Virus record (IMG/VR): IMGVR_UViG_3300042393_000543
Coordinates: 1 to 24,660 of that record
Reading direction: 5' to 3' (one strand)
Source: a virus
Taxonomy: Duplodnaviria > Caudoviricetes
DNA length: 24,660 nucleotides
Part shown: positions 60-17,413 of the stretch, in pieces
How the letters are laid out: each line of letters opens with the position of its first letter
How positions within the stretch are numbered: position 1 is the first letter of the stretch
The notes under the pieces: generated by a model
What the model was told of the DNA's origin: nothing
Seen by the model: only the letters and a program-made list of their open reading frames with translations
Databases searched by the model: none
Position numbers and translations under genes: made by a program

Positions 60-605
60 TTATTCCGTCAAGAGTGCCAAGATTGCGGCTTGATCAATCT
101 TGGACTGAGCGGCGGCGTGAAGGGCGGCGGAAAGCTTTTCCGGAAGGGCGGAAACGGCGTTAAGGATTGCGTGTTTCCGGTCCGCTGTATCGAGTCCCTT
201 TGACGCGGCAAGGGCCGTGGCAATCGGCTTGAACACGGGATTTTTGCGCGCGTCATATGCCGCGACGTAAAGCGACTCGTCAAAGGCGGACAAGCCGGGC
301 AAGCCGGACTTGGTGCGTGGTGCGGAAAGGACGCCAGTCATTGCCGCGTCAAGGCGAGTGGCAAAGCACGCGGAAACGTCAAAAGGCTTGCCGTCATTGA
401 ACGTTTCGCCTTTGGACTCCGCTTCTTGCGCGGCAAGTTTGAAAGTATGGGCTTGTGCGTTGATGTGGTCTTGGAACCAACGACGGACGCCGTAGGTGAA
501 GATTGCTTCAAGGGCGATTGCCGAAAAAGTGGATGGGTCAACCGTGAAGTCCGCTTTTTGTGCGGCAAGGTCAACGGTGGCAAGATTGAAAGAAAGTTTG
601 GTCAT
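60..605 (-). CDS. Hypothetical phage protein (181 aa, Ala-rich, helical)
   Basis: ORF 60..653 trimmed to ATG at 605 (MTKLSFNLATV...), preceded by GAAAGG RBS-like sequence. Confidence 0.75.
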   Translation of the reverse strand: MTKLSFNLATVDLAAQKADFTVDPSTFSAIALEAIFTYGVRRWFQDHINAQAHTFKLAAQEAESKGETFNDGKPFDVSACFATRLDAAMTGVLSAPRTKSGLPGLSAFDESLYVAAYDARKNPVFKPIATALAASKGLDTADRKHAILNAVSALPEKLSAALHAAAQSKIDQAAILALLTE

Positions 606-671
606 TGGATATGCCTTTCGTAGGATGCGGAATTGCATCGCATTCCGGCCCATTGATAGGGCCGGAAAACG

Positions 672-941
672 TCACAATCCCTTGGCGACGAATTGCGCCA
701 AGAATTTCCGTTTCATGGCGCGGACGGGATAGCCGCGGATTCCGGACATCATGCAAGCGAAGGATAGGGCTTGAATCCATTGCTTTGCGGACTGGTAGCC
801 GATTGTTTGGCCGTCAAAGCGATAGAACGTCGCGTTGATATATTCGGCATGTGCCGGGGAAAGATACGCGAAAACATCTTCAAGGGCTTGCGTGTCCGCA
901 ATGGCGCGGTCGGAAGGATAAGCGATTGTGTAGTGGGTCAT
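672..941 (-). CDS. Hypothetical phage protein (89 aa)
   Basis: ATG at 941 (MTHYTIAYP...) with GGAG upstream; co-oriented with the 60..605 gene and downstream of a predicted promoter. Confidence 0.7.
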   Translation of the reverse strand: MTHYTIAYPSDRAIADTQALEDVFAYLSPAHAEYINATFYRFDGQTIGYQSAKQWIQALSFACMMSGIRGYPVRAMKRKFLAQFVAKGL

Positions 942-983
942 GATGGACTCCAAAAAAGGGTAAAGCTATCGCATGGCCTCGCC

Positions 984-1012
984 AGAATATCCGCGATTTT
1001 TGGGGGATGCAA
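984..1012 (-). promoter_or_regulatory. Sigma70-type promoter for the leftward genes
   Basis: On the minus strand TTGCAT (1012-1007), 17-nt spacer, TATTCT (989-984); about 40 nt upstream of the ATG at 941. Confidence 0.55.
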
Positions 1013-1287
1013 GCGATATGCGCAAGAAAAGCCGAAACCACGGCCAAAACGTAAAGAAAACCGATTGCCGGGCAGATTGGCGCGGGAAAACTCAAAACTG
1101 CCCAAAAAATAGGCAAAAGCTTAAGAAATGGGCAAAACGCGCCTAGCGAGTTTTCCGTATCCGTGCCGCCCAAAAAATTGACCACGTTCCTTGCCCTTCC
1201 TATGAAGCGTGCCGGGCTCATCACGAAATGTTACAAAACTCGGGGAATTGAAACAATTCGGATCGAGCCTTTTCACGCGTTGTAACA

Positions 1288-1531
1288 CGCGAAAGATTAT
1301 TGCGCGCGGGAAAGCTCAAGCAATCGGTTGAGCAATAATCTTGCGCGCAGGAATTGCGCGGGGCAAAACTCGGCATAAACTTTTGATATAGACGAGTTTT
1401 TCACGTGGAAATATTATGTAATTTCGGCGCGAAATAATGTTGCGCGAGGTTTCGGGATAAACTTTTGATATAGACGAGGTTTTGGGATAAACTTTTGGCC
1501 TATGCGAGTTTTCCCGCGAAAGATTATTGCG
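1288..1531. repeat. Cluster of direct and inverted repeats
   Basis: CGCGAAAGATTATTGCG at 1288-1304 and 1515-1531, with inverted core GCAATAATCTT at 1332-1342; ATAAACTTTTGATATAGACGAG at 1375-1396 and 1457-1478; 30-bp tandem period CGAGGTTTYGGGATAAACTTTTG starting at 1445 and 1475. Confidence 0.85.
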
Positions 1532-1602
1532 GGATTGAGCAAGATTGTTTCGTCATTTTTGCCCAGCTTTTCTGCCAAATTTCCGAGCCTTTCCCGCATT
1601 TC

Positions 1603-1682
1603 CGCCAGTGGAATCTGGTTCTTCGCCAGTGGAATCTGGTCTGCCGTCGGTGGAATCCGGTCCCTCGTCGGCGGAGTCCGGT
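1603..1682 (+). repeat. 4 x 21-bp tandem repeat, progressively diverging
   Basis: 17-nt cores at 1603, 1624, 1645, 1666: CGCCAGTGGAATCTGGT, CGCCAGTGGAATCTGGT, CGTCGGTGGAATCCGGT, CGTCGGCGGAGTCCGGT. Confidence 0.9.
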
Positions 1683-1689
1683 GTCGGTG

Positions 1690-2097
1690 TTGGGGGGTAA
1701 GGTATGCTGATGGGGGACGGCTGGGTAGCTGGATTTGGCGGTTTCGTTCATGCCTTCGGCGGGGGGAATGTATGGCTGGTTTCGCGGCCCGGTATGGTCT
1801 TATCATTAAGTGGTAGGACCATACCGGGCTCGCCCAGGTTCTACCTTCCCCCCGAGTCCTTGCTTCCGTTTCCCTTCTTGAGCCTGGACCTTACATTTCC
1901 CGTTCTCCTACTCTCCCCTTTTTTATCTTATATAGAAATTTTTTTTTTTTTAAAAATTGAGCCATACATTAGCCAGCTCACTGAGTCCCGGCCAGTTCGG
2001 ACCCAGCCCCGACCATACAAACCGCCCCAAAACGTATGAACGAAACGCCGTTTTTCAGCTACCCAGACACCCCCCATTGCCATCCCTTACCACCCAA
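1690..2097. repeat. Long imperfect inverted repeat (62-bp arms at 1690-1751 and 2036-2097)
   Basis: Ungapped hand alignment of the left arm with the reverse complement of the right arm gives 47/62 identity; encloses a palindrome, a pyrimidine tract and a T13 run (1939-1951). Confidence 0.8.
1787..1829. promoter_or_regulatory. 35-bp palindromic operator-like element, copy 1
   Basis: GCCCGGTATGGTC / GACCATACCGGGC perfect 13-bp arms around TTATCATTAAGTGGTAG; related copies at 8187 and 14202. Confidence 0.7.
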
Positions 2098-2136
2098 GGC
2101 GGATACCCGCCGCCCGCCGAAAGCTCATCGCCGCCC

Positions 2137-2165
2137 TTGACAATCCCGCCGGGATGTGCGATTGT
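2137..2165 (+). promoter_or_regulatory. Putative sigma70 promoter for the rightward early operon
   Basis: TTGACA (2137-2142), 17-nt spacer ending in TGC, weak -10 GATTGT; about 50 nt before the first rightward ORF. Confidence 0.4.
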
Positions 2166-2214
2166 ACGGGAGCGGGGGGATTATGCCCGCGGAATTTATG
2201 AATGGAGTAAATCA

Positions 2215-2382
2215 ATGCAGATACGTTGCGCGGATGAGGGGCTGGACCTGTTCCCGGACTCGGAATTGCCGGAACTGTTTTACGAGATTCAAGGGCCGTT
2301 GGATCGGCCCGAGGATGAAGAAGCCGAAACGGCAACCCTTTGCCTGTATCTGGTGCGGTCGTGCGGGAGGATTGTGGTATGA
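2215..2382 (+). CDS. Small acidic hypothetical protein (55 aa)
   Basis: ATG 2215 after GGAG; the stop overlaps the next start (ATGA). Confidence 0.55.
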   Translation: MQIRCADEGLDLFPDSELPELFYEIQGPLDRPEDEEAETATLCLYLVRSCGRIVV

Positions 2383-2630
2383 CCAGCAAGCCCCTTTTTG
2401 AGTTCCACGCCGCCTGCCGCGAGGTTGTGGTCTGCCGGGGAAACCCCGCACTGGACTACGCGATCGACTACGCCCAGGCCGGGCTTGCGATGACCGACGC
2501 GGATGAGTGCCGGGTGCAATGTCTGTACCTTTGCGAGAATATCACCAAATGGCGCGGCCCGATCGCTGAGGGCGCCCGCAAGGCTTTCCGCCGCCTCTCG
2601 CTTCCTTCTGCTTGGGAGTCCGAGAGATGA
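2379..2630 (+). CDS. Hypothetical phage protein (83 aa)
   Basis: GGAGG RBS at 2366-2370, ATG 2379 (MTSKPLFEF...), ATGA coupling at both ends. Confidence 0.7.
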   Translation: MTSKPLFEFHAACREVVVCRGNPALDYAIDYAQAGLAMTDADECRVQCLYLCENITKWRGPIAEGARKAFRRLSLPSAWESER

Positions 2631-2740
2631 TCCGCGGCCTTCTTCTCGGCCTCCTCGGCCTTTACTTGGCCGACCTATCACTCAAGGCCACGCAACGTCA
2701 CGCGCATGATCTGTTCATCGCGCAACAAATGGGAGAGTAA
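2627..2740 (+). CDS. Small putative membrane peptide (37 aa, MIRGLLLGLLGLYLADLSLKATQRHAHDLFIAQQMGE)
   Basis: Hand-translated, below the ORF-track cutoff; GGAG RBS, ATGA overlap with the upstream stop, ends 1 nt before the next ATG; hydrophobic N-terminus. Confidence 0.55.
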   Translation: MIRGLLLGLLGLYLADLSLKATQRHAHDLFIAQQMGE

Positions 2741-2741
2741 G

Positions 2742-2960
2742 ATGTTCAAAGTCCGCAAAAAGTATGTGGTGAAAAACCGCCTCTGGGAGTGCCTCGCCAT
2801 CCGTGGAAATTACGCGTGGCTGGTTTCGATTTACGAGGGCGAGAAAGCGCAGAAATCGACCGCGTATGTCTGGAGCCACGACGGCAAGGCGGTTTCCCTC
2901 AGCGACGAATACGACATCGATTTCGCCGTCACGGAACTGGTCGAGGAAGATTTCGTCTGA
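2742..2960 (+). CDS. Hypothetical protein (72 aa)
   Basis: GGAG RBS then ATG 2742 (MFKVRKKY...). Confidence 0.7.
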   Translation: MFKVRKKYVVKNRLWECLAIRGNYAWLVSIYEGEKAQKSTAYVWSHDGKAVSLSDEYDIDFAVTELVEEDFV

Positions 2961-3026
2961 CACCGCATCGACAGTTGGCCGGGGACTTGTTCCGGCCAAT
3001 CTCCATGCGATGTTGCATGAATGGAG
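2960..3026 (+). ncRNA. Structured intergenic RNA motif, copy A1 (unclassified)
   Basis: ACACCGCAT-CGACAG-[TTGGCCGG/CCGGCCAA stem]-TCTCC-ATGCGATGT-TGCATG-AAT-GGAG; covaries with copy A2. Confidence 0.6.
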
Positions 3027-3034
3027 TATAGTTT

Positions 3035-3334
3035 ATGAAAATGCCTGACTCAGCCTTCGACGACCTTCTTCTGCTTTTCCGCGAGTTTGACTTGCTTGAC
3101 ATCGACGCGAGGGCCGCCTGCGAATATCACACGATCGGCCAGAACGCCAAGCGTTACCGCTGGGATCGGCTCTACGCAATCCCCTTTCCGGCCCGGCAGG
3201 CTTGGTTCGACGGCCACGCGATCTACGAGACCATGAACGACGATCACATCGACACGGCCCTGCGGAAAATCTTCTCCCACAACCGAGACATCTTCATCCC
3301 GCAGAAGGCCGCAAAAATGCTTGCAAGCCGATAA
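3035..3334 (+). CDS. Hypothetical phage protein (99 aa)
   Basis: GGAG RBS at 3023-3026; contains RYRWD...NDDHIDTALRKI. Confidence 0.75.
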   Translation: MKMPDSAFDDLLLLFREFDLLDIDARAACEYHTIGQNAKRYRWDRLYAIPFPARQAWFDGHAIYETMNDDHIDTALRKIFSHNRDIFIPQKAAKMLASR

Positions 3335-3335
3335 A

Positions 3336-3407
3336 ACACCACGCCGACAGTCAGGCGGGGCCGACCATCCCGCCTGATCTCCGTGTGATGTTGCACGAAA
3401 TAGGAGG
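3336..3407 (+). ncRNA. Structured intergenic RNA motif, copy A2 (unclassified)
   Basis: ACACCACGC-CGACAG-[TCAGGCGGG/CCCGCCTGA stem]-TCTCC-GTGTGATGT-TGCACG-AAAT-AGGAGG; same layout as A1 with compensatory changes. Confidence 0.6.
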
Positions 3408-3414
3408 CTACCCA

Positions 3415-3732
3415 ATGTTCCCTTTCACTGAGAAATACCCCGAGGCCGCCGGCCTGCTCCCCCAGTTCCTCGACCGCAACGACCCCCGGCCAGCCCGCGA
3501 ACAAATCCACGAGGCCTATGCGCACGGCGGCGGCTGGCATGAGTTCCGGGGCTTCACCCCGCACATCGACTGGGCGGACCCGCTGAAAAGCTACCTCAGC
3601 TACCCGGACGATCCGCCGACGCGAGCCGTTGCTTTCGCCCTATTCGGCGAGGAACTTGTGCTGCTTTTTCAAGGCAGCTGGTGCGCGATTGTCCAGCCCG
3701 ATCTCTCGGCAGAGATCGCCCGCCTAGACTGA
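3415..3732 (+). CDS. Hypothetical phage protein (105 aa)
   Basis: AGGAGG RBS, ATG 3415 (MFPFTEKYPEAAGLLPQFLDRNDPRPAREQI...). Confidence 0.8.
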   Translation: MFPFTEKYPEAAGLLPQFLDRNDPRPAREQIHEAYAHGGGWHEFRGFTPHIDWADPLKSYLSYPDDPPTRAVAFALFGEELVLLFQGSWCAIVQPDLSAEIARLD

Positions 3733-3792
3733 CGAAACGGGGGTCGTTCCCCGTCAGGGAGGTTGGCATCCTTCCTCTGATGAGTCCGCCAA
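3731..3792 (+). ncRNA. Hammerhead ribozyme, type II, with loop I / 3' tail pseudoknot (HH1)
   Basis: GAC-GAAAC-GGGG/CCCC stem III-GTC (predicted cleavage after C3755)-AGGGAGG/CCTTCCT stem I with loop TTGGCAT-CTGATGA-GTC; loop TTGGC pairs with GCCAA (3788-3792); full canonical core. Confidence 0.92.
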
Positions 3793-3805
3793 TAGGAGAA
3801 ATACC

Positions 3806-4255
3806 ATGCAAGATAAACTCAACTTCATGAAGAACTGCCTCAACGCGCTTTCCTTGCGCGGCTGGGATGACTCCCGGATCACTATGCAGGCCGAGATCAC
3901 GGCGGAAGGCAACGTCTGGACCGAGGATTACTTCTACGTCTATCCGGCCTATACTGATGAGGCGGGGGTGTTGCAGAAAGTAGACTCGCTCTACGTCCCC
4001 GTCTATAACCTCGAGACTTCCAAAAACAAAGACGCCTTCGCGGCTCGGCTGCTTGCTGCAACCCCTCCGATCAAGGAACACAAGACCAAGCTTCTCCTCG
4101 AACACGTCGCCAAGATCAGCGAGCTTGCGGCCGCCCTTAACCTTTCCGCCGACTTCATCAACCCGATCACGGCGCTGGCTGATCTGATCCGCACAAACAT
4201 CCTGCCCGCCTCGTCCGGCTTCGCTCCGGTCGAGTCCGACGACATTCCCTTTTAA
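3806..4255 (+). CDS. Hypothetical protein (149 aa) with SSB-like C-terminal DDIPF tail
   Basis: AGGAG RBS, ATG 3806; ends ...PVESDDIPF; lies between two hammerheads. Confidence 0.8.
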   Translation: MQDKLNFMKNCLNALSLRGWDDSRITMQAEITAEGNVWTEDYFYVYPAYTDEAGVLQKVDSLYVPVYNLETSKNKDAFAARLLAATPPIKEHKTKLLLEHVAKISELAAALNLSADFINPITALADLIRTNILPASSGFAPVESDDIPF

Positions 4256-4258
4256 CCT

Positions 4259-4315
4259 GACGAAACGCCTTCGGGCGTCTGGTGCCTTGGCATGGCATCA
4301 CCGATGAGTCTGCCA
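4259..4315 (+). ncRNA. Hammerhead ribozyme, type II, variant core CCGAUGA (HH2)
   Basis: GAC-GAAAC-GCC TTCG GGC-GTC (predicted cleavage after C4279)-TGGTGCC/GGCATCA stem I with identical loop TTGGCAT-CCGATGA-GTC; TGGCA pairs with TGCCA (4311-4315). Confidence 0.82.
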
Positions 4316-4329
4316 CATGGAGTCCAATA

Positions 4330-4677
4330 ATGTCTGAACAAAGTATCGACACCGTCTACCTCACGGCCCGCGGCCTTTCCGCAATGCTCGCCAGCGGCGA
4401 TCACGAGAACCTGCCAGCAAGCGACCTTGCAGAAATCTGGTCTGAGCTTCTCCAATCCATCGCAATCTTGGCCAAGTCTGGCCAATGCCCGCCGGAACTA
4501 ATCGGCCAGCTTATCAAAGAACTGCCCCTGACCGGGCGAGTCGGCGTCATGGGGCCGGATGGCAAACCCCGCTACAAGACAAACCGCCGTGTCGCCCTCG
4601 CGACCGCCGAAGCCCTTGGCGAGGACGCCGCGCAGGACCTCTACCACTTCGCGGTTCTCGTGACAAAGCTTAGCTAA
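4330..4677 (+). CDS. Hypothetical protein (115 aa)
   Basis: GGAG at 4319-4322, ATG 4330 (MSEQSIDTVYL...). Confidence 0.75.
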   Translation: MSEQSIDTVYLTARGLSAMLASGDHENLPASDLAEIWSELLQSIAILAKSGQCPPELIGQLIKELPLTGRVGVMGPDGKPRYKTNRRVALATAEALGEDAAQDLYHFAVLVTKLS

Positions 4678-4678
4678 C

Positions 4679-4912
4679 ATGAGCCCGCGCCACTTCACCC
4701 GCAAACTCTCAGCCGCCGAGGCCTCCGTTTTCCTCGACGAGCTTTACCTTAACACCGGGCTCAAGCCCGAACCGTTCCCGAGCGGCTCAATCATCATTTC
4801 CCCGTCAGGGGAGCCGATGATCCGCGTCTTGGAACTCACTTCCGGCCACGTCCTATTCTACTTCTCAACCGACTTCTACAAGGAGCCCAAAAATGGCCTC
4901 AAGAAAAGATAG
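4679..4912 (+). CDS. Hypothetical protein (77 aa)
   Basis: Starts 1 nt after the upstream stop; C-ending codon bias like its neighbours. Confidence 0.65.
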   Translation: MSPRHFTRKLSAAEASVFLDELYLNTGLKPEPFPSGSIIISPSGEPMIRVLELTSGHVLFYFSTDFYKEPKNGLKKR

Positions 4913-5270
4913 CTCCCCCGCGGCCTACGGCGACGTTAAGTTCATCCTCGAACTCGCCGTCAAAAAGCCCGGCCTGCAGTACGTCCTGAAATCCTCCGGC
5001 GCCGCCGTCAACTTCAAACAGCGCTGCAACAAGTACCGCAACCTTATCCGCGAGATGGCCGCGGAAACGGTGCTGAACATCCCAGGCCACCGGGCCGAAA
5101 CCGCCTATGACGTTCTCGTCATTCGCCAAGTCGGCCCGGACCGCCTTCCCGACCGCCACGGCTGCACGATACTCTTTGAGCATCAGCAACTCAGCGGCTC
5201 GATCATCGACCCCGAGACGGGCGACCTGATCGAAATTCCGGGCCTGACCAACATTCTCCGGGAGTATTAA
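4893..5270 (+). CDS. Hypothetical phage protein (125 aa)
   Basis: AAGGAG RBS, ATG 4893, operon packing. Confidence 0.75.
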   Translation: MASRKDSSPAAYGDVKFILELAVKKPGLQYVLKSSGAAVNFKQRCNKYRNLIREMAAETVLNIPGHRAETAYDVLVIRQVGPDRLPDRHGCTILFEHQQLSGSIIDPETGDLIEIPGLTNILREY

Positions 5271-5271
5271 C

Positions 5272-5505
5272 ATGACCGACTACGCCCCTGAGGCCGCGCC
5301 GTCCGTCGCGCTCTCCCCGATCATCACCCAACGCAACGAGAACATCGCTAAGGCCGCGCTAGGCAACCTCACTGACGGGCAGTTGCAGCTTGTCCTTGAG
5401 GCCTACATGACAAAACGCTACGGCCCGAGGAGGGCCGCCGTTTTGCTTTCGATGATCTCTCGCCAATGCGAGATTGCCCCGTGGGCCGAGGGGGTCCGGA
5501 AATGA
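5272..5505 (+). CDS. Hypothetical protein (77 aa)
   Basis: GGAG RBS, ATG 1 nt after the upstream stop. Confidence 0.7.
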   Translation: MTDYAPEAAPSVALSPIITQRNENIAKAALGNLTDGQLQLVLEAYMTKRYGPRRAAVLLSMISRQCEIAPWAEGVRK

Positions 5506-10250: not shown

Positions 10251-11185
10251 CCGCGCTCACCGCAAAGAAGAAGTCATTCACTAACGGCGTTCAGATATTC
10301 TGGGACGCAACGTCGCTCGACCTCGCGCAATCCTGTCCCCGCAAATACTACTATTCCATGATCCGAGGCATCCGGCCGAAAGAGCAATCCGTTCACCTCC
10401 TATTCGGCGGCCTCTACGCAACGGCCCTCGAACACTTCTACAAATACCGCGCCCTCGGCCAGTCCACCGAGGCGGCCCTTCGGCTCGTAGTCCACGAGGC
10501 CCTCATCGGCTCTTGGGACGCGGAAAGGGGCGGGCCGAAAAGCTTCGATGACCCGAAGAAAACCCGAGCGGCCCTCATCCGCACAATCATCTGGTACGTT
10601 GAGCAATTCGGCGTCGAGACTGAGGCCGGCCTCCGCACCTACCACCTCCAAGACGGCAAGCCCGCCGTTGAGCTTTCCTTCTCCCTCGAGCTCAACGCGG
10701 ATATTGTCTATTGCGGCCACCTCGATCGCGTGGTCCAGATGGGTGACGAGCTTTACGTCATGGACCAAAAGACAACCGGAGGAACTGTTGGCACCTACTA
10801 CTTCAACAACTTCTCCCCGTCGAACCAGATGAGCGGCTACGCCCTAGCCGGACAGATCATCCTAGCCTCCCCTGTCCGCGGGGTCATCATTGACGCGGCC
10901 CAGATCGCCGTGAACTACACCCGGTTCGAGCGCGGCGTTACCTCCCGCTCAAAAGACCAGCTTGAGGAATGGCTTCAAGCCACAATCCAGTCAATCGGCG
11001 CCTTCCAGCAGCAAGTGACTCCGGCGCCCGAGGCCGAGGCAACCTACCCGCAAAACCCGACGGCCTGCGGGAATTACGGTGGCTGCTCCTTCCGCATCCT
11101 TTGCAGCCGCAGCCCCAAGGTCCGCGAGAATTTCATCCAGTCCGACTTCACTTCCCACAACTGGGACCCTGCAACGCCGAGGTAA
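10247..11185 (+). CDS. PD-(D/E)XK Cas4/AddB-like exonuclease with probable Fe-S cluster
   Basis: N-terminal CPRKYYY, GHLD...MDQKT, QMSGY, C-terminal C..YGGC.F..LC. Confidence 0.88.
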   Translation: MTALTAKKKSFTNGVQIFWDATSLDLAQSCPRKYYYSMIRGIRPKEQSVHLLFGGLYATALEHFYKYRALGQSTEAALRLVVHEALIGSWDAERGGPKSFDDPKKTRAALIRTIIWYVEQFGVETEAGLRTYHLQDGKPAVELSFSLELNADIVYCGHLDRVVQMGDELYVMDQKTTGGTVGTYYFNNFSPSNQMSGYALAGQIILASPVRGVIIDAAQIAVNYTRFERGVTSRSKDQLEEWLQATIQSIGAFQQQVTPAPEAEATYPQNPTACGNYGGCSFRILCSRSPKVRENFIQSDFTSHNWDPATPR

Positions 11186-11188
11186 TCC

Positions 11189-11977
11189 ATGACAACTCTA
11201 TCCGATCACAAATCCTCCGATTTCGTGAAACTCCTTTTCATCGGCAATTCTGGCGCAGGAAAGACTGGAGCCCTGACCCCGCTTGTTTCGGCGGGCTACG
11301 AACTCCGCATCATCGACCTCGACTCCGGCCTCGACGCCCTCGTCAATCACATCAAGGAAATCGACCCTAAGCTGCTGGCCGCCGTGCAGTTCGAGTCCTT
11401 CCGCGACAAGATGAAGATGACCGCCTCCGGCCCTGCCGTCATCGGCAGCCCAAAAGCCTACGTCCAGACCCTCAACGCGCTGGAAAAGTGGCCCGCTGAT
11501 AACACTGACCCGGCCAAATGGGGACCGAAGAAAGTCCTCGTCATCGACAGCCTGACCAATCTTGGCCGAGCCGCCTTCCAGTGGGCGCGGGCCGCAAACC
11601 CGATGTCAAAAGACCCTCGCCAATGGTACAAGGCGGCCCAAGACCTGATCGAGGATTTGATTGCCAACGTCACCTCCGACTCATTTGAAACCAACGTCAT
11701 CATCATTTCCCACGTTGAGATGACCGAGACAAACGGCACATTCAAGGGCTTTGCCAGTTCCGTTGGCAAGGCCCTCGGCCCCAAAATTCCGCGCTTCTTC
11801 AACACCCTGCTCCTGTCCGAAACATCCGGCAGCGGCAAGAACGTCAAGCGCAAGATCAAAACCCTGCCAACGGGCTTGATCGACCTGAAAAACCCGGCCC
11901 CGATGAAGATGGAAGCCGAGTATGAGATTTCTGACGGCCTTCTCCAGATATTCAATATCTTGAAGGCACAGAACTGA
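11189..11977 (+). CDS. AAA_24 / Sak4-like P-loop ATPase (putative recombinase)
   Basis: GNSGAGKT Walker A, IIDLD.G, VIDSLT Walker B, IISH; sits between an exonuclease and an SSB-like gene. Confidence 0.82.
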   Translation: MTTLSDHKSSDFVKLLFIGNSGAGKTGALTPLVSAGYELRIIDLDSGLDALVNHIKEIDPKLLAAVQFESFRDKMKMTASGPAVIGSPKAYVQTLNALEKWPADNTDPAKWGPKKVLVIDSLTNLGRAAFQWARAANPMSKDPRQWYKAAQDLIEDLIANVTSDSFETNVIIISHVEMTETNGTFKGFASSVGKALGPKIPRFFNTLLLSETSGSGKNVKRKIKTLPTGLIDLKNPAPMKMEAEYEISDGLLQIFNILKAQN

Positions 11978-12021
11978 CCGCCGGAAAGACGGCACTTTTC
12001 ACAACTTTTGGAGAAACCAAC

Positions 12022-12489
12022 ATGAAGTTTTCAGACGCACTCGACCGCAAACTCGAAGAAATCAAGCGCCCGCCCGTCCTGCCGATCGGCCATTACATCT
12101 GGCAAGTCACCAAGCACCCGGAAATTGATGAGTTCGAGTCCTCGAAAACCGGCACCTCGTTCGAGCGTGTCACGATCAACCTCACCTGCGTCCAGGCCTC
12201 CGACGACGTGGACACTGACGACCTGGCAAACTACGGCAACGTCCAAGGCAGCCAGAACCGGAAAAGCTTCCTGTTCTCAGCCTCGGCCGACGACAAGGCC
12301 AGCTTCGAACGCTCGATGTTCAACCTTCGCCGGTTCCTCGATCATTGCGGCGTGGACGAGACGCTCCCGATGAACGAAGCCCTCGCCGCCGTGGTGGGGA
12401 TGCAGTTCCTGGGCGAGCTTACTCACCGGCCCGACCCGAACGACCCTGAGATCGTTTACGCCGAAGTCGGCCGCACCGCTCAAATCTAA
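12022..12489 (+). CDS. Putative single-stranded DNA-binding protein (DUF669-like)
   Basis: PVLPIGHY N-terminal motif, beta-rich acidic body, position after a Sak4-like ATPase. Confidence 0.6.
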   Translation: MKFSDALDRKLEEIKRPPVLPIGHYIWQVTKHPEIDEFESSKTGTSFERVTINLTCVQASDDVDTDDLANYGNVQGSQNRKSFLFSASADDKASFERSMFNLRRFLDHCGVDETLPMNEALAAVVGMQFLGELTHRPDPNDPEIVYAEVGRTAQI

Positions 12490-12544: not shown

Positions 12545-12865
12545 ATGGCAGAACAAACCAAACCGCGGAGAGTGCAATTCCTGCACGAGGGCGCAAAACT
12601 TACTAACGGCGATCGGGATATTGAGTACGGAACGCCGTATGAGAACCTGGGAAACTGCGCGGTGCTTTTCACGGCATATCTCGCGGCGAAGTACGGCGAG
12701 CTTCTGCACGGATTTGTGCTGACCGCCGAGGACGTGGCCTGGCTTAACGTCCTCCAGAAAATGGCCCGGACCTTCAACGGCAGCTCCAAGCCTGACACCT
12801 ACATCGATGCTGCAACTTACTCGGCCATCGCCGGTGAGTGCGCCGAAGAAAAGCGGTCAGCATGA
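12545..12865 (+). CDS. DUF6378-like protein
   Basis: GDRDIEYGTPYEN...DVAWLNVLQKMAR...DTYIDAATY. Confidence 0.75.
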   Translation: MAEQTKPRRVQFLHEGAKLTNGDRDIEYGTPYENLGNCAVLFTAYLAAKYGELLHGFVLTAEDVAWLNVLQKMARTFNGSSKPDTYIDAATYSAIAGECAEEKRSA

Positions 12866-14181
12866 CCAGCGGAACCTTCGACTACATCGCCGTTTCCTCC
12901 ATCATCATTGACCGGGAAAATCGCCAGCGGCGCGAACTCACCGGCATCCCCGAGCTTGCCAAATCCATCGCGGATAACGGCCTGATCAATCCAATCGTCA
13001 TCACGCGAGACCTTGTTCTCGTCGCCGGGGAGCGCCGACTCACGGCCCACAAACACCTCGGCTTTGACCTGATCGCCGTGCAATATCTCTCTGATCTCGA
13101 TGATGAACAAACCGCAATCATCGAGCTCGAGGAAAACATTCGGCGGGAAGATCTCCCGTGGCAGGATCACGTCAAGGCCGTTTCTCGCTTTCACGAAATC
13201 CGCTCAAAGCAGGCCGCGGCCACCAACCAAACCTGGAGCCAGGACGCAACGGCCGCCGAACTCGGTATGTCCCAAGCCAACATCGCAAAACATCTCCTCG
13301 TGAAAAAGGCGATGGACCTCGGCATCAAGGACGTGATTGACTCGCCTAAACTCACAACGGCGGCCAACTTTGCCGGGCGGCTCCAAGAGCGGAAGAAAAC
13401 CACCTTGCTCCGAGAATTGCGCCAAGAGCCGTCAGTGGCGTCAGTGGCATCTGACCTCGAGGGTGATCTGATCTCGCCCGATGACGAGCCCCCGGCTACC
13501 TCTGCCCCGACCCGCTACGCCGAGATCATCAACACAAACTTCCTCGCTTGGTCGCTCGAAGTCCGCGAGTTTCCCTACAACGTGATCCACTGCGACTTCC
13601 CCTACGGCATTTCGGCGGGCGATACAATCGGCCAGTCCAGCGCAAAATCCTTCGGCGGCTACTTGGACAGCGCAGATATTTACTGGGAATTGCTCGAAAC
13701 CTTCCTCGCCCGGCAGGACCGCTTCGTTGCCCCCTCGGCCCATATGCTATTTTGGTTCAGTATGAAATACTACACCCCGACCGTCCAGAAATTGCGGGCA
13801 GCGGGCTGGCGTGTCGATGACTTCCCCTTGATATGGCACCGCTCGGACAATGCCGGAATATTGCCCGATGCGCAACGGGGGCCGCGCCGGACGTATGAAA
13901 CGGCCCTATTTTGCACCCGTGGCGACCGAAAAACCGTCAAAGCCGTGGCCAATTCCATCGCCGCCGTGACGACAAAAAACTACCACATGAGCGAGAAGCC
14001 GATGCCGGTCCTCGAGCATTTCTTCCGCATGATTATCGACGAGACTTCCCTCGTCCTCGATCCGACTTGCGGGAGCGGTAATGCGATCAAGGCCGCCGAG
14101 GCCGCCGGTGCAAATTGGGCAACCGGCCTCGAACTATCCCCCGACTACGCCGAGGGCGCCAGACAAAATCTGGGGCTGTAA
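12862..14181 (+). CDS. ParB N-terminal domain / amino-DNA methyltransferase fusion (439 aa)
   Basis: ELAKSIADNGLINPIVI...LVAGERRL...ELEENIRRED (ParB), HTH-like WSQDATAAELGMSQANI, then DFPY, HMSEKP and VLDPTCGSG (beta-class motif order). Confidence 0.88.
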   Translation: MTSGTFDYIAVSSIIIDRENRQRRELTGIPELAKSIADNGLINPIVITRDLVLVAGERRLTAHKHLGFDLIAVQYLSDLDDEQTAIIELEENIRREDLPWQDHVKAVSRFHEIRSKQAAATNQTWSQDATAAELGMSQANIAKHLLVKKAMDLGIKDVIDSPKLTTAANFAGRLQERKKTTLLRELRQEPSVASVASDLEGDLISPDDEPPATSAPTRYAEIINTNFLAWSLEVREFPYNVIHCDFPYGISAGDTIGQSSAKSFGGYLDSADIYWELLETFLARQDRFVAPSAHMLFWFSMKYYTPTVQKLRAAGWRVDDFPLIWHRSDNAGILPDAQRGPRRTYETALFCTRGDRKTVKAVANSIAAVTTKNYHMSEKPMPVLEHFFRMIIDETSLVLDPTCGSGNAIKAAEAAGANWATGLELSPDYAEGARQNLGL

Positions 14182-14188
14182 ATAGACC

Positions 14189-14236
14189 TTGACACTAGCT
14201 CGGTATGGCTTTATCATTAAGTGATAGCGCCATACC
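14189..14236 (+). promoter_or_regulatory. Sigma70 promoter overlapped by 35-bp palindrome copy 3
   Basis: TTGACA (14189-14194), 17 nt, TATCAT (14212-14217), with the -10 inside GGTATGGCTTTATCATTAAGTGATAGCGCCATACC (14202-14236). Confidence 0.75.
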
Positions 14237-14255
14237 GACCTGCGGGAGCCACTAC

Positions 14256-15269
14256 ATGCACAAACCAGTCTTTATTATAGGCGAGGCCCTTGGCGAGGAA
14301 GAAGAACGGCGGAACGAGGCCTTCGCAGGCCCGGCAGGTTCTGTCCTCCACGGCATCCTCCGCCAAGCCGGAATAGCCAAAGACGACTGCTATTTCACAA
14401 ACGTCTTTAACTTCAGGCCGCGCGGGAACCGCCTTGACTCAGTTCTAACCGGCAAGCCCAACGCCATTGCAAACTACCGCCCGATCTCAGCCGGGAAATA
14501 CGTCGACAAACAATACCAGCCTGAGCTCGATCGCCTGCAAGCCGAACTCGATGCGGTCAAGCCCAACGTAATTCTTGCCCTCGGCAACTACGCGCTTTGG
14601 GCCGTCTGCAAAAAGACCGGCATCAAGCGGTACAGGGGCAGCCCGCTTTATTCCCACGACGCTCGCTGGAAAGTCATCCCGACCTGGAGCCCGGCCTCTG
14701 TCCTCAAACAGTGGGAAATCCGCGTAGTCATGCTCGCGGATATTTCTAAGGTCGCCCGCGAGATGACCTTCCCCGAACTTCGGCGGCCCCAGCGTTTCAT
14801 CTACATGGAGCCGACCATGCAGGAGATCGAGGACTTCTACAACCAGTTCCTGCGCAACCAACCCTTTATATCCTGCGACGTGGAAACAAAAGACCGCACG
14901 ATTACTGAGGTCGGCTACGGCACAGCCGACGGCCGCCATTGCCTCGTCATTCCCTTCTGGGATCGCACGAGGAAGGACGGCAACTACTGGCGGACGCACG
15001 AGGAAGAACGCGAGGCCTGGAGATGGGTCCGCCGCATCAACGCCTCGCATCGCCTCATCGGCCAAAACTTCTCCTACGACATGCAGTATTTCTGGCGGAC
15101 TGCGGGCATCCCTTGCCCAGGTTTCCTCGGGGACACTATGCTTCTCCACCACTCCATGCAGCCCGAACTCGAAAAAGGCCTGGGCTTCCTTGGCTCGATC
15201 TACACCGACGAGCCGTCTTGGAAGTTTATGCGTACCGATCACTCAACATTAAAGCAGGCAGACGAATGA
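14256..15269 (+). CDS. Uracil-DNA glycosylase-like domain fused to a partial DnaQ-like 3'-5' exonuclease (337 aa)
   Basis: IIGEALG..E...AFAGPAG, YFTNV, ILALGNYA, TWSPAS (family-4-like UDG); ExoI CDVET, ExoII GQNFSYD, DTML; GGAG RBS. Confidence 0.85.
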   Translation: MHKPVFIIGEALGEEEERRNEAFAGPAGSVLHGILRQAGIAKDDCYFTNVFNFRPRGNRLDSVLTGKPNAIANYRPISAGKYVDKQYQPELDRLQAELDAVKPNVILALGNYALWAVCKKTGIKRYRGSPLYSHDARWKVIPTWSPASVLKQWEIRVVMLADISKVAREMTFPELRRPQRFIYMEPTMQEIEDFYNQFLRNQPFISCDVETKDRTITEVGYGTADGRHCLVIPFWDRTRKDGNYWRTHEEEREAWRWVRRINASHRLIGQNFSYDMQYFWRTAGIPCPGFLGDTMLLHHSMQPELEKGLGFLGSIYTDEPSWKFMRTDHSTLKQADE

Positions 15270-15487
15270 AATATCTCACAGTCATGGCCACGGCGGAGCT
15301 TGGCTCCGCACTAGAACTCTACCACGTTAATCCCGCCAGCATAGTGCATTTGCGGGACATGGGATCATACACAGTAAGAATGGCGTCAAACATCGTCATA
15401 GACTCCCCGATCTGTTTTGTAACTCTATTCAGCGGTGAGCTTTACGTCAGCGGAGTCGCCGAAGAATTGATTGCGAGGATGGCATGA
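15266..15487 (+). CDS. Small hypothetical protein (73 aa)
   Basis: ATGA overlaps at both ends; MKYLTVMATAE... Confidence 0.6.
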   Translation: MKYLTVMATAELGSALELYHVNPASIVHLRDMGSYTVRMASNIVIDSPICFVTLFSGELYVSGVAEELIARMA

Positions 15488-15816
15488 TCTACATTGCATC
15501 ACCGTACACTCACCACAATCTCGACGTGATGACCAGCCGGTATGAAGCCGTCCTCCACTACGCAGGCCGCCTGAAATCCGCGGGCATCCCCTGCTTCTCG
15601 CCGATCGCCTACGGCCACGAGTTCTTCATCCGCGGTTACACTCCGCCATACTTTACCTTCTGGCAGTCCTTCAACGATCACATGATCCTCGCATCCTCGG
15701 AAGTCGTGGTCCTGACCCTCCCAGGCTACAACGAAAGCGTGGGCGTCCAGCATGAGATCGAGTTCGCGCGCAAAAACAATATGCCAGTGAGGTTCGTCGC
15801 CAATGAAGATTTTTGA
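15484..15816 (+). CDS. DUF1937 / nucleoside 2-deoxyribosyltransferase-like fold protein
   Basis: MIYIASPY...FSPI...ESVGVQHEIEFARKNNMPV. Confidence 0.75.
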   Translation: MIYIASPYTHHNLDVMTSRYEAVLHYAGRLKSAGIPCFSPIAYGHEFFIRGYTPPYFTFWQSFNDHMILASSEVVVLTLPGYNESVGVQHEIEFARKNNMPVRFVANEDF

Positions 15817-17413
15817 CACGGCCAACCTCGACGAGAAAACCATGCCGCTTCTTTCCGCCCAGGAGGCCGCATGGATTTACAACGGCCTAGACGTTTGCGT
15901 GACCGCCGAAATCTACAATACTCTCATGGCGCAACTCGACACCGAGCCGCTAAATATCCGGGCAACCTACGAAACCGCGCTGGCCAAACTTGCCCCGATT
16001 ATGGAGATGGGCCTGCGCGGAACCTTGATCGATGAGGAGGCCCGCCAGTTCTCCATCCGCGACCTTGAGTCCGACCTTCGCGGGCTGGACCACAAATTCC
16101 AGCGGATCATGCGGGAAGTATTCAGCGGGGAGGTTAATTGGCGTTCCCCGCTTCAGCTAAAAAACCTGTTCTACGGGATGCTGGGGCTGAAAGAAGTCAA
16201 GAAGCGCAACGCGCAGGGCGTTTTTGCGGCCACCGTAAACCGCGAGGCGCTAGAATACTTCGACCTCTACCTCTACGCCAAGCCCCTCGCCCGCATGATC
16301 CTCGCCATGCGGGATATTCACAAACAGGTCAGCTTTCTAAAGACTGAGATTGACCGAGACCAGCGCATCCGCACCACCTACAACATCGCTGGCACGAACA
16401 CGGGCCGCCTAGCCTCCTCCATGTCCGAGTTCGGCACCGGGACAAACTTGCAGAATGTGAACCGAAAACTCCGCTACCCGTTTACTGCCGACCCAGGAAT
16501 GTATATGGTCAACGTGGACCTTGAGCAGGCCGACGGCCGCAATGTCGGCGCAATCTGCCACAACCTTTTCCTCGACGCAGACGCAAAGCTTCTCGCCCGC
16601 CTCATGGAAGTCCCCGTCTGGAAAGGCCCCTGCGGCCCTGAGTTCGCTTCCGCCTTCCTCGACGCCTGCGAGTCCGGCGATCTCCACACCTACGTTTGCC
16701 GGATGACGTGGCCAGAACTCGACTGGCCCGATGACCCAAAACTCCTGAAGAAGTTCTGCGACGGCCTTATCGCTCACGGCCAGGACAGCTACCGGCAGCT
16801 TGCTAAGAAACTCGGCCACGGCACTAACTACTACGGGACGCCGCGGACAATGGCCAAGCACGCTCACGTCCCGACAAAGATCATCGAGACATTCCAAGAG
16901 CGCTACTTCACCCAGTTCCCGGCAATCAAAGCTTGGCACAACTGGACGATTGGCGAAATTCAAACGCACGGAACTCTTACCACCCCCTTCGGCCGCCGGA
17001 GGATGTTCTTCGGCCGAGGCAACGACGCCAGCACCTGGCGCAAGGCCATCGCCTATTCCCCGCAGTCCATGACCGGAGAACAGATTGACCGCGGCCTGCT
17101 TGAAATCTGGCGCAAGTATCCAAACGTCCAGCTTCTAAACCAAGTCCACGACTCCATCCTTTTCCAGGTCCCCTTCCGCGAAGCTACTCACTTGATCCCT
17201 GAAATATTAAAGACGATGCAGGTCGCCATCGAACTCAAGGGCGGCCGCCAATTCACCGTTCCTCTCGAGGCCTCAGGCGGCTGGAATTGGGGCTACGCGG
17301 ATAATGAAAACAACAAATATGGACTCAAAAAATGGACAGGAAAAGAGGACCGGGATCGGCCTTCGCCCAAAAGTCGGCTCCGCGACTTGCTACAGCCCGC
17401 CCGGACTTCATAG
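15803..17413 (+). CDS. Family A DNA polymerase (ExoIII motif plus polymerase domain)
   Basis: YNGLD, TNTGRLAS, NLQN, motif A DLEQADGR, GDLH, motif B RQLAKKLGHGTNY, TPFGRRR, motif C QVHDSI. Confidence 0.93.
   Translation: MKIFDTANLDEKTMPLLSAQEAAWIYNGLDVCVTAEIYNTLMAQLDTEPLNIRATYETALAKLAPIMEMGLRGTLIDEEARQFSIRDLESDLRGLDHKFQRIMREVFSGEVNWRSPLQLKNLFYGMLGLKEVKKRNAQGVFAATVNREALEYFDLYLYAKPLARMILAMRDIHKQVSFLKTEIDRDQRIRTTYNIAGTNTGRLASSMSEFGTGTNLQNVNRKLRYPFTADPGMYMVNVDLEQADGRNVGAICHNLFLDADAKLLARLMEVPVWKGPCGPEFASAFLDACESGDLHTYVCRMTWPELDWPDDPKLLKKFCDGLIAHGQDSYRQLAKKLGHGTNYYGTPRTMAKHAHVPTKIIETFQERYFTQFPAIKAWHNWTIGEIQTHGTLTTPFGRRRMFFGRGNDASTWRKAIAYSPQSMTGEQIDRGLLEIWRKYPNVQLLNQVHDSILFQVPFREATHLIPEILKTMQVAIELKGGRQFTVPLEASGGWNWGYADNENNKYGLKKWTGKEDRDRPSPKSRLRDLLQPARTS

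Follow-up and report, generated by a model that had tools for sequence, protein, structure and literature searches.

Two type II hammerhead motifs before consecutive small genes of an uncultured phage as candidate gene-leader cassettes

The question raised by this locus is what two self-cleaving RNA motifs might do on either side of one small phage gene. Do they form a device that excises this gene, or does each motif serve the gene that follows it? The DNA analysed, hereinafter the window, is the linear virus record IMGVR_UViG_3300042393_000543 with a length of 24,660 bases, which is 57% complete. A preliminary description of its sequence had proposed that two type II hammerhead ribozymes, designated here HH1 and HH2, bracket gene A and would release it as a single-gene RNA, possibly as a circle.

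The + strand of the window codes for a helicase, an exonuclease, a Sak4-like protein, a split family A DNA polymerase, and a primase, and the tail genes are on the − strand. HH1 and HH2 are located among small + strand genes without known function, upstream of the replication block; this locus is probably the early region. The closest DNA polymerase of a cultured phage is that of the Caulobacter phage Kuura (33.5%), and gene C, located before HH1, matches the Rhizobium phage RHph_X3_2, where the 12-kb region around the match contains no hammerhead descriptor match. The low identity of these cultured phage matches makes them only a hint of an alphaproteobacterial host. The source phage is probably non-integrated.

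Gene A belongs to a small, phage-like family of 33 clusters at 50% identity and has seven near homologues. No Pfam or PHROG family was found for it (one family member matches at E 0.004), and neither an atlas match nor a match in cultured phages was found. The predicted model is confident (pLDDT 83.7); it has no PDB match at E ≤ 0.001 (best VIA Z 6.3), and no functional name is attached to either of the two viral matches below 0.001. In the alignment of the family, which leaves out two clusters of repetitive long proteins, the last residues are an acidic residue, P, and F/L/Y/S in 17 of the 36 members, and 14/36 end in PF. We take the acidic PF tail to resemble the C-terminal tip of SSB; the assignment of gene A as an SSB from this tail is unsupported by the family and structure searches. 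Homologues of gene B mainly share a C-terminal stretch of about 31 residues, and gene C has 98 confirmed relatives in IMG/VR.

Anatomy and detection of the two motifs

When both strands of the window were searched with a stem-II-open hammerhead descriptor, exactly two matches were obtained, and their C17 positions (Table 1) agree with the cuts predicted in the preliminary description. In 100 dinucleotide shuffles, there were 0.03 matches per window and none with equal stem quality. When 16 sibling motifs from other phages, none from the source phage, were used to build a covariance model, HH1 scored 66.1 bits and HH2 64.2 bits, and no further or decayed hammerhead in the window exceeded 8.5 bits. 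The descriptor, the shuffles, and the covariance model thus bear out two type II hammerhead motifs at the two junctions.

Both motifs have three helices round the core, of which stems I and III end in loops and stem II is open. The core-adjacent pairs are intact, and the stems of HH1 and HH2 are unrelated in sequence. The first bases of HH1 overlap the TGA stop codon (3730–3732) of the ORF located at 3415–3732. Pairing between loop I and the 3′ tail, pointed out earlier from the letters, stands up well: it amounts to 5 bp in each motif, with registers offset by one base, and sibling motifs carry a compensatory change in it. Neither pseudoknot overlaps the Shine-Dalgarno (SD) sequence.

The HH1 core matches the consensus C3 U4 G5 A6 N7 G8 A9, G12 A13 A14, A15.1–U16.1, H17 (PMC3088659), and the HH2 core deviates from the strict consensus at position 4 only (C, 4302). 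The core had been read correctly as C(T/C)GATGA in the preliminary description, without the C being flagged as a core deviation (U4C). HH2 is thus classed as a U4C core variant, which probably acts in the manner of a hammerhead. The fragment between the predicted cuts (3756–4279) is 524 nt long, and it follows that an RNA with gene A alone would be released if both motifs cut. The U4C substitution is reported to lower in vitro activity considerably, still permitting viroid infectivity (PMC3088659), so that excision may be incomplete.

Table 1. Coordinates of genes, hammerhead motifs, and junction elements in the window
Feature	Position	Strand	Description	Basis
Junction element 1	2959..3026	+	22-bp irregular hairpin, alternative 5-bp hairpin, SD	repeat, folding
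Junction element 2	3335..3406	+	geometry of element 1, compensatory changes	repeat, folding
Gene C	3415..3732	+	105 aa, widespread small phage gene; stop codon fused to HH1	
HH1	3731..3792	+	type II hammerhead, canonical core, loop I/3′ tail pseudoknot	sequence, descriptor, covariance model
HH1 GAC	3731-3733	+		
HH1 GAAA	3734-3737	+		
HH1 stem III	3737-3754	+	7 bp	
HH1 C17	3755	+	predicted cut directly 3′	
HH1 stem I	3756-3762/3770-3776	+	7 bp	
HH1 loop I	3763-3769	+		
HH1 core	3777-3783	+	CUGAUGA	
HH1 GUC	3784-3786	+		
HH1 pseudoknot strand	3788-3792	+		
Gene A Shine-Dalgarno	3794-3798	+	1 nt 3′ of HH1 pseudoknot strand	sequence
Gene A ATG	3806	+		
Gene A	3806..4255	+	149 aa, no known family, disordered acidic tail ending DDIPF	
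HH2	4259..4315	+	type II hammerhead motif, U4C core variant, pseudoknot	sequence, descriptor, covariance model
HH2 GAC	4259-4261	+		
HH2 GAAA	4262-4265	+		
HH2 stem III	4265-4278	+	5 bp, UUCG loop	
HH2 C17	4279	+	predicted cut directly 3′	
HH2 stem I	4280-4286/4294-4300	+	7 bp	
HH2 loop I	4287-4293	+		
HH2 core	4301-4307	+	CCGAUGA, U4C at 4302	
HH2 GUC	4308-4310	+		
HH2 pseudoknot strand	4311-4315	+		
Gene B Shine-Dalgarno	4319-4322	+	3 nt 3′ of HH2 pseudoknot strand	sequence
Gene B ATG	4330	+		
Gene B	4330..4677	+	115 aa, no known family	

Rfam searches of the whole window and of positions 3650–4400, as well as a genome search with Hammerhead_II (RF02276), gave no type II match. In a local search of HH1 (79 nt), the full RF02276 model was aligned at 32.1 bits and the gathering cut-off of 37 was not reached; the local search of HH2 gave no match. 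The Infernal search with Rfam models, which had been recommended as a check, thus does not return the pair, and standard annotation would miss both motifs. In seven hammerhead-rich loci, only seven motifs in two loci reached the RF02276 cut-off; siblings with the same loop as HH1 and HH2 are among those passing it (40.8 bits in L007 and 38.6–38.8 bits in L010). These results show that type II hammerheads are under-called by Rfam.

Covariation was analysed in 21 distinct motifs chosen for their shared 7-nt loop type, a set that is biased for the pseudoknot by this selection and contains three L010 rows misaligned at the 5′ side. In this set, 98% of the cells pair, and 0/500 shuffles reach the score. 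Two-sided changes are present in 7/7 stem I pairs and 2/3 stem II pairs, and one pseudoknot pair is changed from G–C to A–U in 4/21 siblings. The closest loci are only copies of the source phage (99.96–100% identical), so no covariation comes from them. A loose descriptor match in L028 was dropped due to its long unstructured loops.

Folding without pseudoknots gave −21.1 kcal/mol for the active fold of HH1 vs. a minimum of −24.2 kcal/mol, and −18.5 vs. −22.1 kcal/mol for HH2; in wider context, the stem I pair probabilities are 0.02–0.18. The same calculations predict a competing hairpin over 3729–3757 for HH1 and an alternative hairpin able to bury the core of HH2.

Distribution of type II hammerheads and gene order in related phages

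Pattern scans of IMG/VR (13 loci, and at least 127 loci with wide flanks for 80) together with loci found by homology gave at least 261 matches, corresponding to at least 178 unique type II motifs, which are phylogenetically non-independent and come from patterns favouring GAC/GTC. Among the motifs listed, 139/178 are followed by an SD and a start codon within 40 nt, as compared with 12.6% of random positions and 18/178 in the antisense upstream control, and 87 of the 127 with enough context have the stop codon of an SD-led ORF within 25 nt upstream (control 6%). The SD starts 0–24 nt past the pseudoknot strand in 75/75 scored motifs among those listed; sequestration of the SD by the pseudoknot was rejected, as there is no overlap in these 75 motifs or here. 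Of the 102 motifs listed whose stem I hairpin spans at least 20 nt, 94 can form at least 4 bp of pseudoknot, vs. 31% after swapping of tails; among the 76 motifs listed with shorter stem I hairpins, 15 can do so. The 10.2–11.2 pair is U–A in 143/178 motifs listed, a value inflated by the search pattern. A pattern scan of GTDB revealed 19 loci, mostly in Desulfovibrionaceae and actinobacteria.

The largest array among the matches listed has at least 12 motifs in one contig group. Exactly one SD-led ORF is enclosed by 45/78 adjacent ribozyme pairs listed, which makes one gene between two type II hammerheads an ordinary arrangement.

The most informative relative is G002, a complete genome of 43,105 bases with terminal repeats and the counterpart of G001; both were reached via L157. 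The identity between G002 and the source phage is 72% for the DNA polymerase, 68% for the helicase, and 76% for Sak4. The order in the window is gene C, canonical ribozyme, gene A (3806), U4C ribozyme, and gene B (4330). In G001/G002, the order is U4C ribozyme, gene B homologue, canonical ribozyme, gene A homologue, two other genes, and the gene C homologue. The homology to G001/G002 is partial but significant: gene B reaches 65% over 31 residues, and gene A, whose acidic tail recurs in its homologue, 32% over 66 residues. The only hammerheads in G002 are the two located before the gene B and gene A homologues. In the ribozyme before gene B, the U4C substitution is kept and stem III is identical in the two phages, while two-sided changes affect four of the seven stem I pairs and a single pair of the pseudoknot. 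The HH2 region is also the only DNA-level match to G002 within positions 600–4900 of the window (83% over 65 nt).

As the gene order is swapped and the ribozymes have not moved relative to the genes, the ribozymes follow the downstream gene, and the identity of the bracketed gene is set by the order: gene A here and gene B in G002. The bracketing of gene A, central to the preliminary description, is not retained in the complete G002 genome, which has no ribozyme 3′ of its gene A homologue. This one related phage lineage suggests that each ribozyme belongs to the gene after it.

Homologues of gene B were found in eight distinct phages; three have a ribozyme before the gene and five have none. 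The third ribozyme before a gene B homologue, in L032, is single and has G for A15.1, so that all three deviate in the core. In the 80 gene C loci, a hammerhead directly 3′ of gene C is present only in the source phage, L200, and L235, and in the last two, it precedes genes with no detected homology to gene A. Among the non-identical relatives found by the helicase, several of which have short upstream sequences, 5/19 have a ribozyme, and two near-complete relatives have no hammerheads. Judging by these genomes, the ribozymes are dispensable within the clade. What is new here is small and consists of the retention of U4C while stem I covaries and the core deviation of all three ribozymes before gene B homologues.

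Candidate role and competing explanations

We estimate at roughly 70% the probability that the motifs are gene-leader cassettes, which would cut the early transcript without a protein and protect or uncouple genes A and B. One early transcript would be processed at as many as four junctions in a row, with ribozymes acting at two of these, and each hammerhead is fused between the stop codon of one gene and the SD of the next. A look-up of sequencing runs for positions 3000–5300 listed none, which speaks neither for nor against this reading. The end chemistry established for the hammerhead class would give the upstream product a 3′ stem III hairpin with a 2′,3′-cyclic phosphate. The downstream message would begin with a 5′-OH on the first paired base of a 7-bp stem I hairpin and would keep a free ribosome-binding site, the SD being located 1–3 nt past the pseudoknot strand. 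All of the pseudoknot is within the 3′ product, and the two ends would therefore be held together by the 3 bp of stem II and core contacts only; with such a weak hold, separation of the products is likelier than their re-joining.

The purpose of these cuts would be a standard, protected 5′ end for genes A and B, and the uncoupling of their stability and translation from the upstream genes, as with RNase III in T7. A 5′-OH hairpin end can stabilise or destabilise an mRNA, depending on the host nucleases. The 524-nt gene A RNA would be a by-product of two adjoining cassettes, and U4C may slow the second cut or leave it incomplete, so that both A-only and A–B messages would arise. Unmasking of the SD by cleavage is unsupported, as its predicted accessibility is nearly constant upon cutting (from 0.55 to 0.57 and from 0.47 to 0.48); stability or uncoupling is thus the likelier benefit.

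The other two junctions would be served by the hairpin elements 1 and 2, which share repeated sequence (z −3.2 and −2.7) and which we infer to be RNase III-site-like by analogy. Related elements are present in L033, L035, L192, and L196; the six copies from five phages, when compared together, have 18–22 pairs and z of −2.8 to −5.5. In 6/6 copies, a stretch of five bases, located six nucleotides onward, is an alternative partner for the 3′ arm, a feature partly built into the search pattern; this alternative pairing would place a short hairpin at the 5′ end of the downstream message, ahead of its SD. In L035, the related hairpin is located 3′ of gene B, where G002 has a ribozyme. An Rfam search with the first copy gave only chance-level miRNA-like matches, the exact element pattern was found in IMG/VR in the source phage only, and among the repeat families listed, no long repeat joins HH1 and HH2.

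An unlikely reading, which overlaps the leader-cassette one rather than opposing it, is that cleavage is conditional: HH1 and HH2 would cut only partly, or when an upstream ribosome terminates, and would thereby set the ratio of gene A to gene B products or trigger decay of the downstream mRNA. It is based on U4C and the competing hairpin in HH2, and on the stop codon in stem II and the competing hairpin in HH1. U4C is rare (10/178 motifs listed), and it is common to HH2 and the G002 ribozyme before gene B despite the two-sided changes in stem I and the pseudoknot; the L032 ribozyme deviates elsewhere in the core, and alternative folds are predicted for both HH1 and HH2. However, only three lineages are involved, and the two U4C copies, having an identical stem III, amount to a single event. 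Since U4C is compatible with viroid infectivity (PMC3088659), it may be merely tolerated, and the nearest-neighbour calculations leave out the pseudoknot, an element in favour of the active fold.

Considerably less likely is that the pair excises gene A to form a circular mRNA, closed either by the reverse hammerhead reaction in a chimeric core or by an RtcB-type host ligase. The ends established for the class are chemically compatible with this, the chimera would combine a canonical core with a 3-bp stem II, and the ORF, SD, and stop codon are all inside the fragment. Circles were raised as a possibility for clustered hammerheads (PMC3088659), and the tandem hammerheads of eukaryotic retrozymes do form them (PMC7761336). 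The comparison with G002, where gene A has no ribozyme after it and the two motifs enclose gene B, stands against this, as does the presence of a single ribozyme, within the available context, in 29 of the 53 groups listed with at least 4.5 kb of context. Joining of the ends would give a chimeric stem II of at least 3 bp in 51/78 (65%) adjacent pairs listed, vs. 58% of random pairs, and of less than 2 bp in 24/78 pairs listed, vs. native stems of at least 3 bp in 76/78. The GAC/GTC shared by the two motifs, on which the idea of a rebuilt hammerhead was earlier based, is mostly the family consensus rather than a sign of design for ligation, and the same 24 of the 78 adjacent pairs listed cannot rebuild stem II. 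In the 524-nt fragment, the predicted probability of the chimeric stem is 0.004, with no pseudoknots modelled. Perreault et al. could not detect circles, the data being unshown in their paper (PMC3088659).

A circular mRNA was called conceivable in the preliminary description; the chimeric core can indeed be drawn, but the comparative support is weak and points away from it. The comparative and folding tests bear on ligation by the ribozyme, and ligation catalysed by a protein is possible. The fuller version, in which a circular, translated, exonuclease-proof early mRNA of gene A (gene B in G002) has its yield set by the U4C ribozyme, is slightly less probable again. Rolling-circle translation was rejected because the ORF stops within the 524-nt fragment. 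A circular phage mRNA, if true, would be a real surprise.

It is just as improbable that HH2 at least, if not both motifs, is an inactive relic or a purely structural hairpin: HH2 is not scored by Rfam, the strict consensus has U4, Perreault et al. initially rejected deviants unless activity had been measured, and 4/18 consensus hammerheads assayed by them were inactive (PMC3088659), but the HH1 core is fully canonical, and HH2, the only DNA-level match to G002 in its region, keeps all other core positions while its stems covary relative to that genome.

The locus offers a compact test system for whether early phage messages gain stability, independence, or fine tuning from such cuts. It adds a natural gene-order swap, a conserved U4C with covarying stems, and hairpin and ribozyme junctions side by side.

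Comparison with known systems

The role of bacterial and phage hammerheads has been described as undefined (PMC6765202). The layout of HH1 and HH2 is of a kind known since 2011, when clustered hammerheads flanking single prophage genes were described by Perreault et al., with examples in Azorhizobium caulinodans, Agrobacterium tumefaciens, and Clostridium scindens; three tandem sets were cleaved in vitro, one of them also in E. coli, and spliced or circular products were considered and remained undetected (PMC3088659). Both the layout and the circle hypothesis of the preliminary description were thus already in that paper. The window has the same arrangement of two sense-strand intergenic hammerheads flanking a single gene in a phage genome. 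The likeness extends to the type II fold, the pseudoknot between loop I and the 3′ tail, the short stem II, the occurrence of more than one copy around single small genes that differ from case to case, and the phage context; for the 2011 clusters, processing into single-gene mRNAs was proposed, and circles were also considered. In contrast, the window comes from an uncultured phage that is probably non-integrated and has only two copies, one of them U4C, a variant which the accessible text of PMC3088659 cites for a viroid only. A further difference is the gene-order swap in a relative, which ties each ribozyme to its downstream gene. A literature search, mainly of papers outside subscription journals and with most results judged by title and opening of the abstract, revealed nothing on phage type II clusters or U4C beyond PMC3088659. 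Dataset S1 or Figures S6–S7 of the same paper may include U4C examples of type II.

Insulators of the RiboJ type share with the window a self-cleaving RNA right before the ribosome-binding site and a standard, hairpin-bearing 5′ end. A ribozyme insulator in this position raised mRNA about twofold and protein 2–10-fold (PMC6206723). These insulators are engineered, follow a promoter, and carry an added hairpin, whereas the motifs in the window are natural and intercistronic and use their own stem I hairpin.

Retrozymes resemble the window in having two same-strand hammerheads a few hundred bases apart, but they are eukaryotic, have type I/III hammerheads in repeated copies, and their circles have been detected (PMC7761336). 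Unlike them, the motifs of the window are of type II, have unrelated stems, and are each fused to a ribosome-binding site.

Hammerheads need no host enzyme and leave a 5′-OH and a cyclic phosphate, whereas RNase III leaves a 5′-phosphate and a 3′-OH. In T7, cleavage at five RNase III sites divides the early mRNA into mono- and dicistronic mRNAs (PMC4858673; see also PMC6938266 for this analogy). As in T7, the cuts predicted in the window would fall between probable early genes, and its two upstream junctions carry long irregular hairpins of broadly similar appearance.

Hammerhead context and distribution

The stem II strand of HH1, the type II hammerhead motif upstream of gene A, overlaps the TGA stop codon of the preceding gene (window 3730-3733), and its cut site is covered by a predicted competing hairpin (3729-3757). 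The upstream TGA likewise overlaps the stem II strand in both ribozymes of the complete related phage G002 (1004-1007 and 1514-1517). HH1-type spacing between stop codon and stem II was found in 14 of the 127 census motifs with enough upstream context.

The covariance model gave 46.9 bits to the single hammerhead of locus L032, a motif missed by the GAAA descriptor. The largest array comprises 12 type II hammerheads (L007/L012/L098-L100/L165; one phage group, two contigs), nearly all of which are followed by the same strong SD. Smaller arrays contain six motifs (L010, L043, and L085) or five (L105, L110, and L094/L116). Among cellular genomes (GTDB), 19 loci (L170-L188) match the type II pattern, ten of them in assemblies of Mailhella or other Desulfovibrionaceae. 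Weak blastn matches to the region of HH2, the second motif of the window, were obtained in the Streptomyces phages R4, phiELB20, Spernnie, Paedore, and Loofah. These matches suggest hammerhead-like motifs in cultured phages, which, if so, could be used as test systems.

Intergenic hairpins and other genome features

Features of the window and related loci
Feature	Sequence	Position	Remark
Long intergenic hairpin	window	2959-3026; 3335-3406	conserved
Same hairpin	L033	6826-6892
Same hairpin	L035	462-530
Same hairpin	L192	5825-5897
Same hairpin	L196	650-720
Acidic C-terminal tail	window	4238-4255	end of gene A; DDIPF/DEIPF-type
Single type II hammerhead	L032	871-933	A15.1 -> G; 5' of gene B homologue; covariance model
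DNA polymerase in two ORFs	window	14205-17413	both match phrog_17
ParB-like/methyltransferase ORF	window	12838-14181	upstream of split DNA polymerase
Large non-coding region	window	1288-1540; 1581-1683; 1925-1958	between divergent gene blocks
TTGACA hexamer	window	2137-2142	perfect; 5' of + strand gene block

In the conserved long intergenic hairpins of the window and the four other loci, the upper stem varies, and a 5-bp hairpin can form as an alternative ahead of the SD; no Rfam family was found for them, and by analogy they would resemble RNase III sites. In L035, such a hairpin occupies the junction 3' of gene B, where G002 has a hammerhead.

The non-coding region, possibly an origin or packaging region, contains short direct and inverted repeats, a long T run, and a 21-nt tandem repeat in 4-5 copies. 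The TTGACA hexamer is a possible early promoter; its accompanying -10 is poor, and the promoter scan did not call it.

Replication genes and the acidic tail of gene A

The two DNA polymerase ORFs are separated by a nucleoside 2-deoxyribosyltransferase-like gene. Compared with the window, the exonuclease gene homologue of G002 (10574-12388) carries an interruption of ~890 bases that may represent an intron, an intein, or an inserted endonuclease.

The acidic tail is frequent across the gene A family, and an 80-aa ORF of L032 (2095-2337) also ends in one. The tail is reminiscent of the C-terminal interaction tip of SSB and could mimic a host protein.
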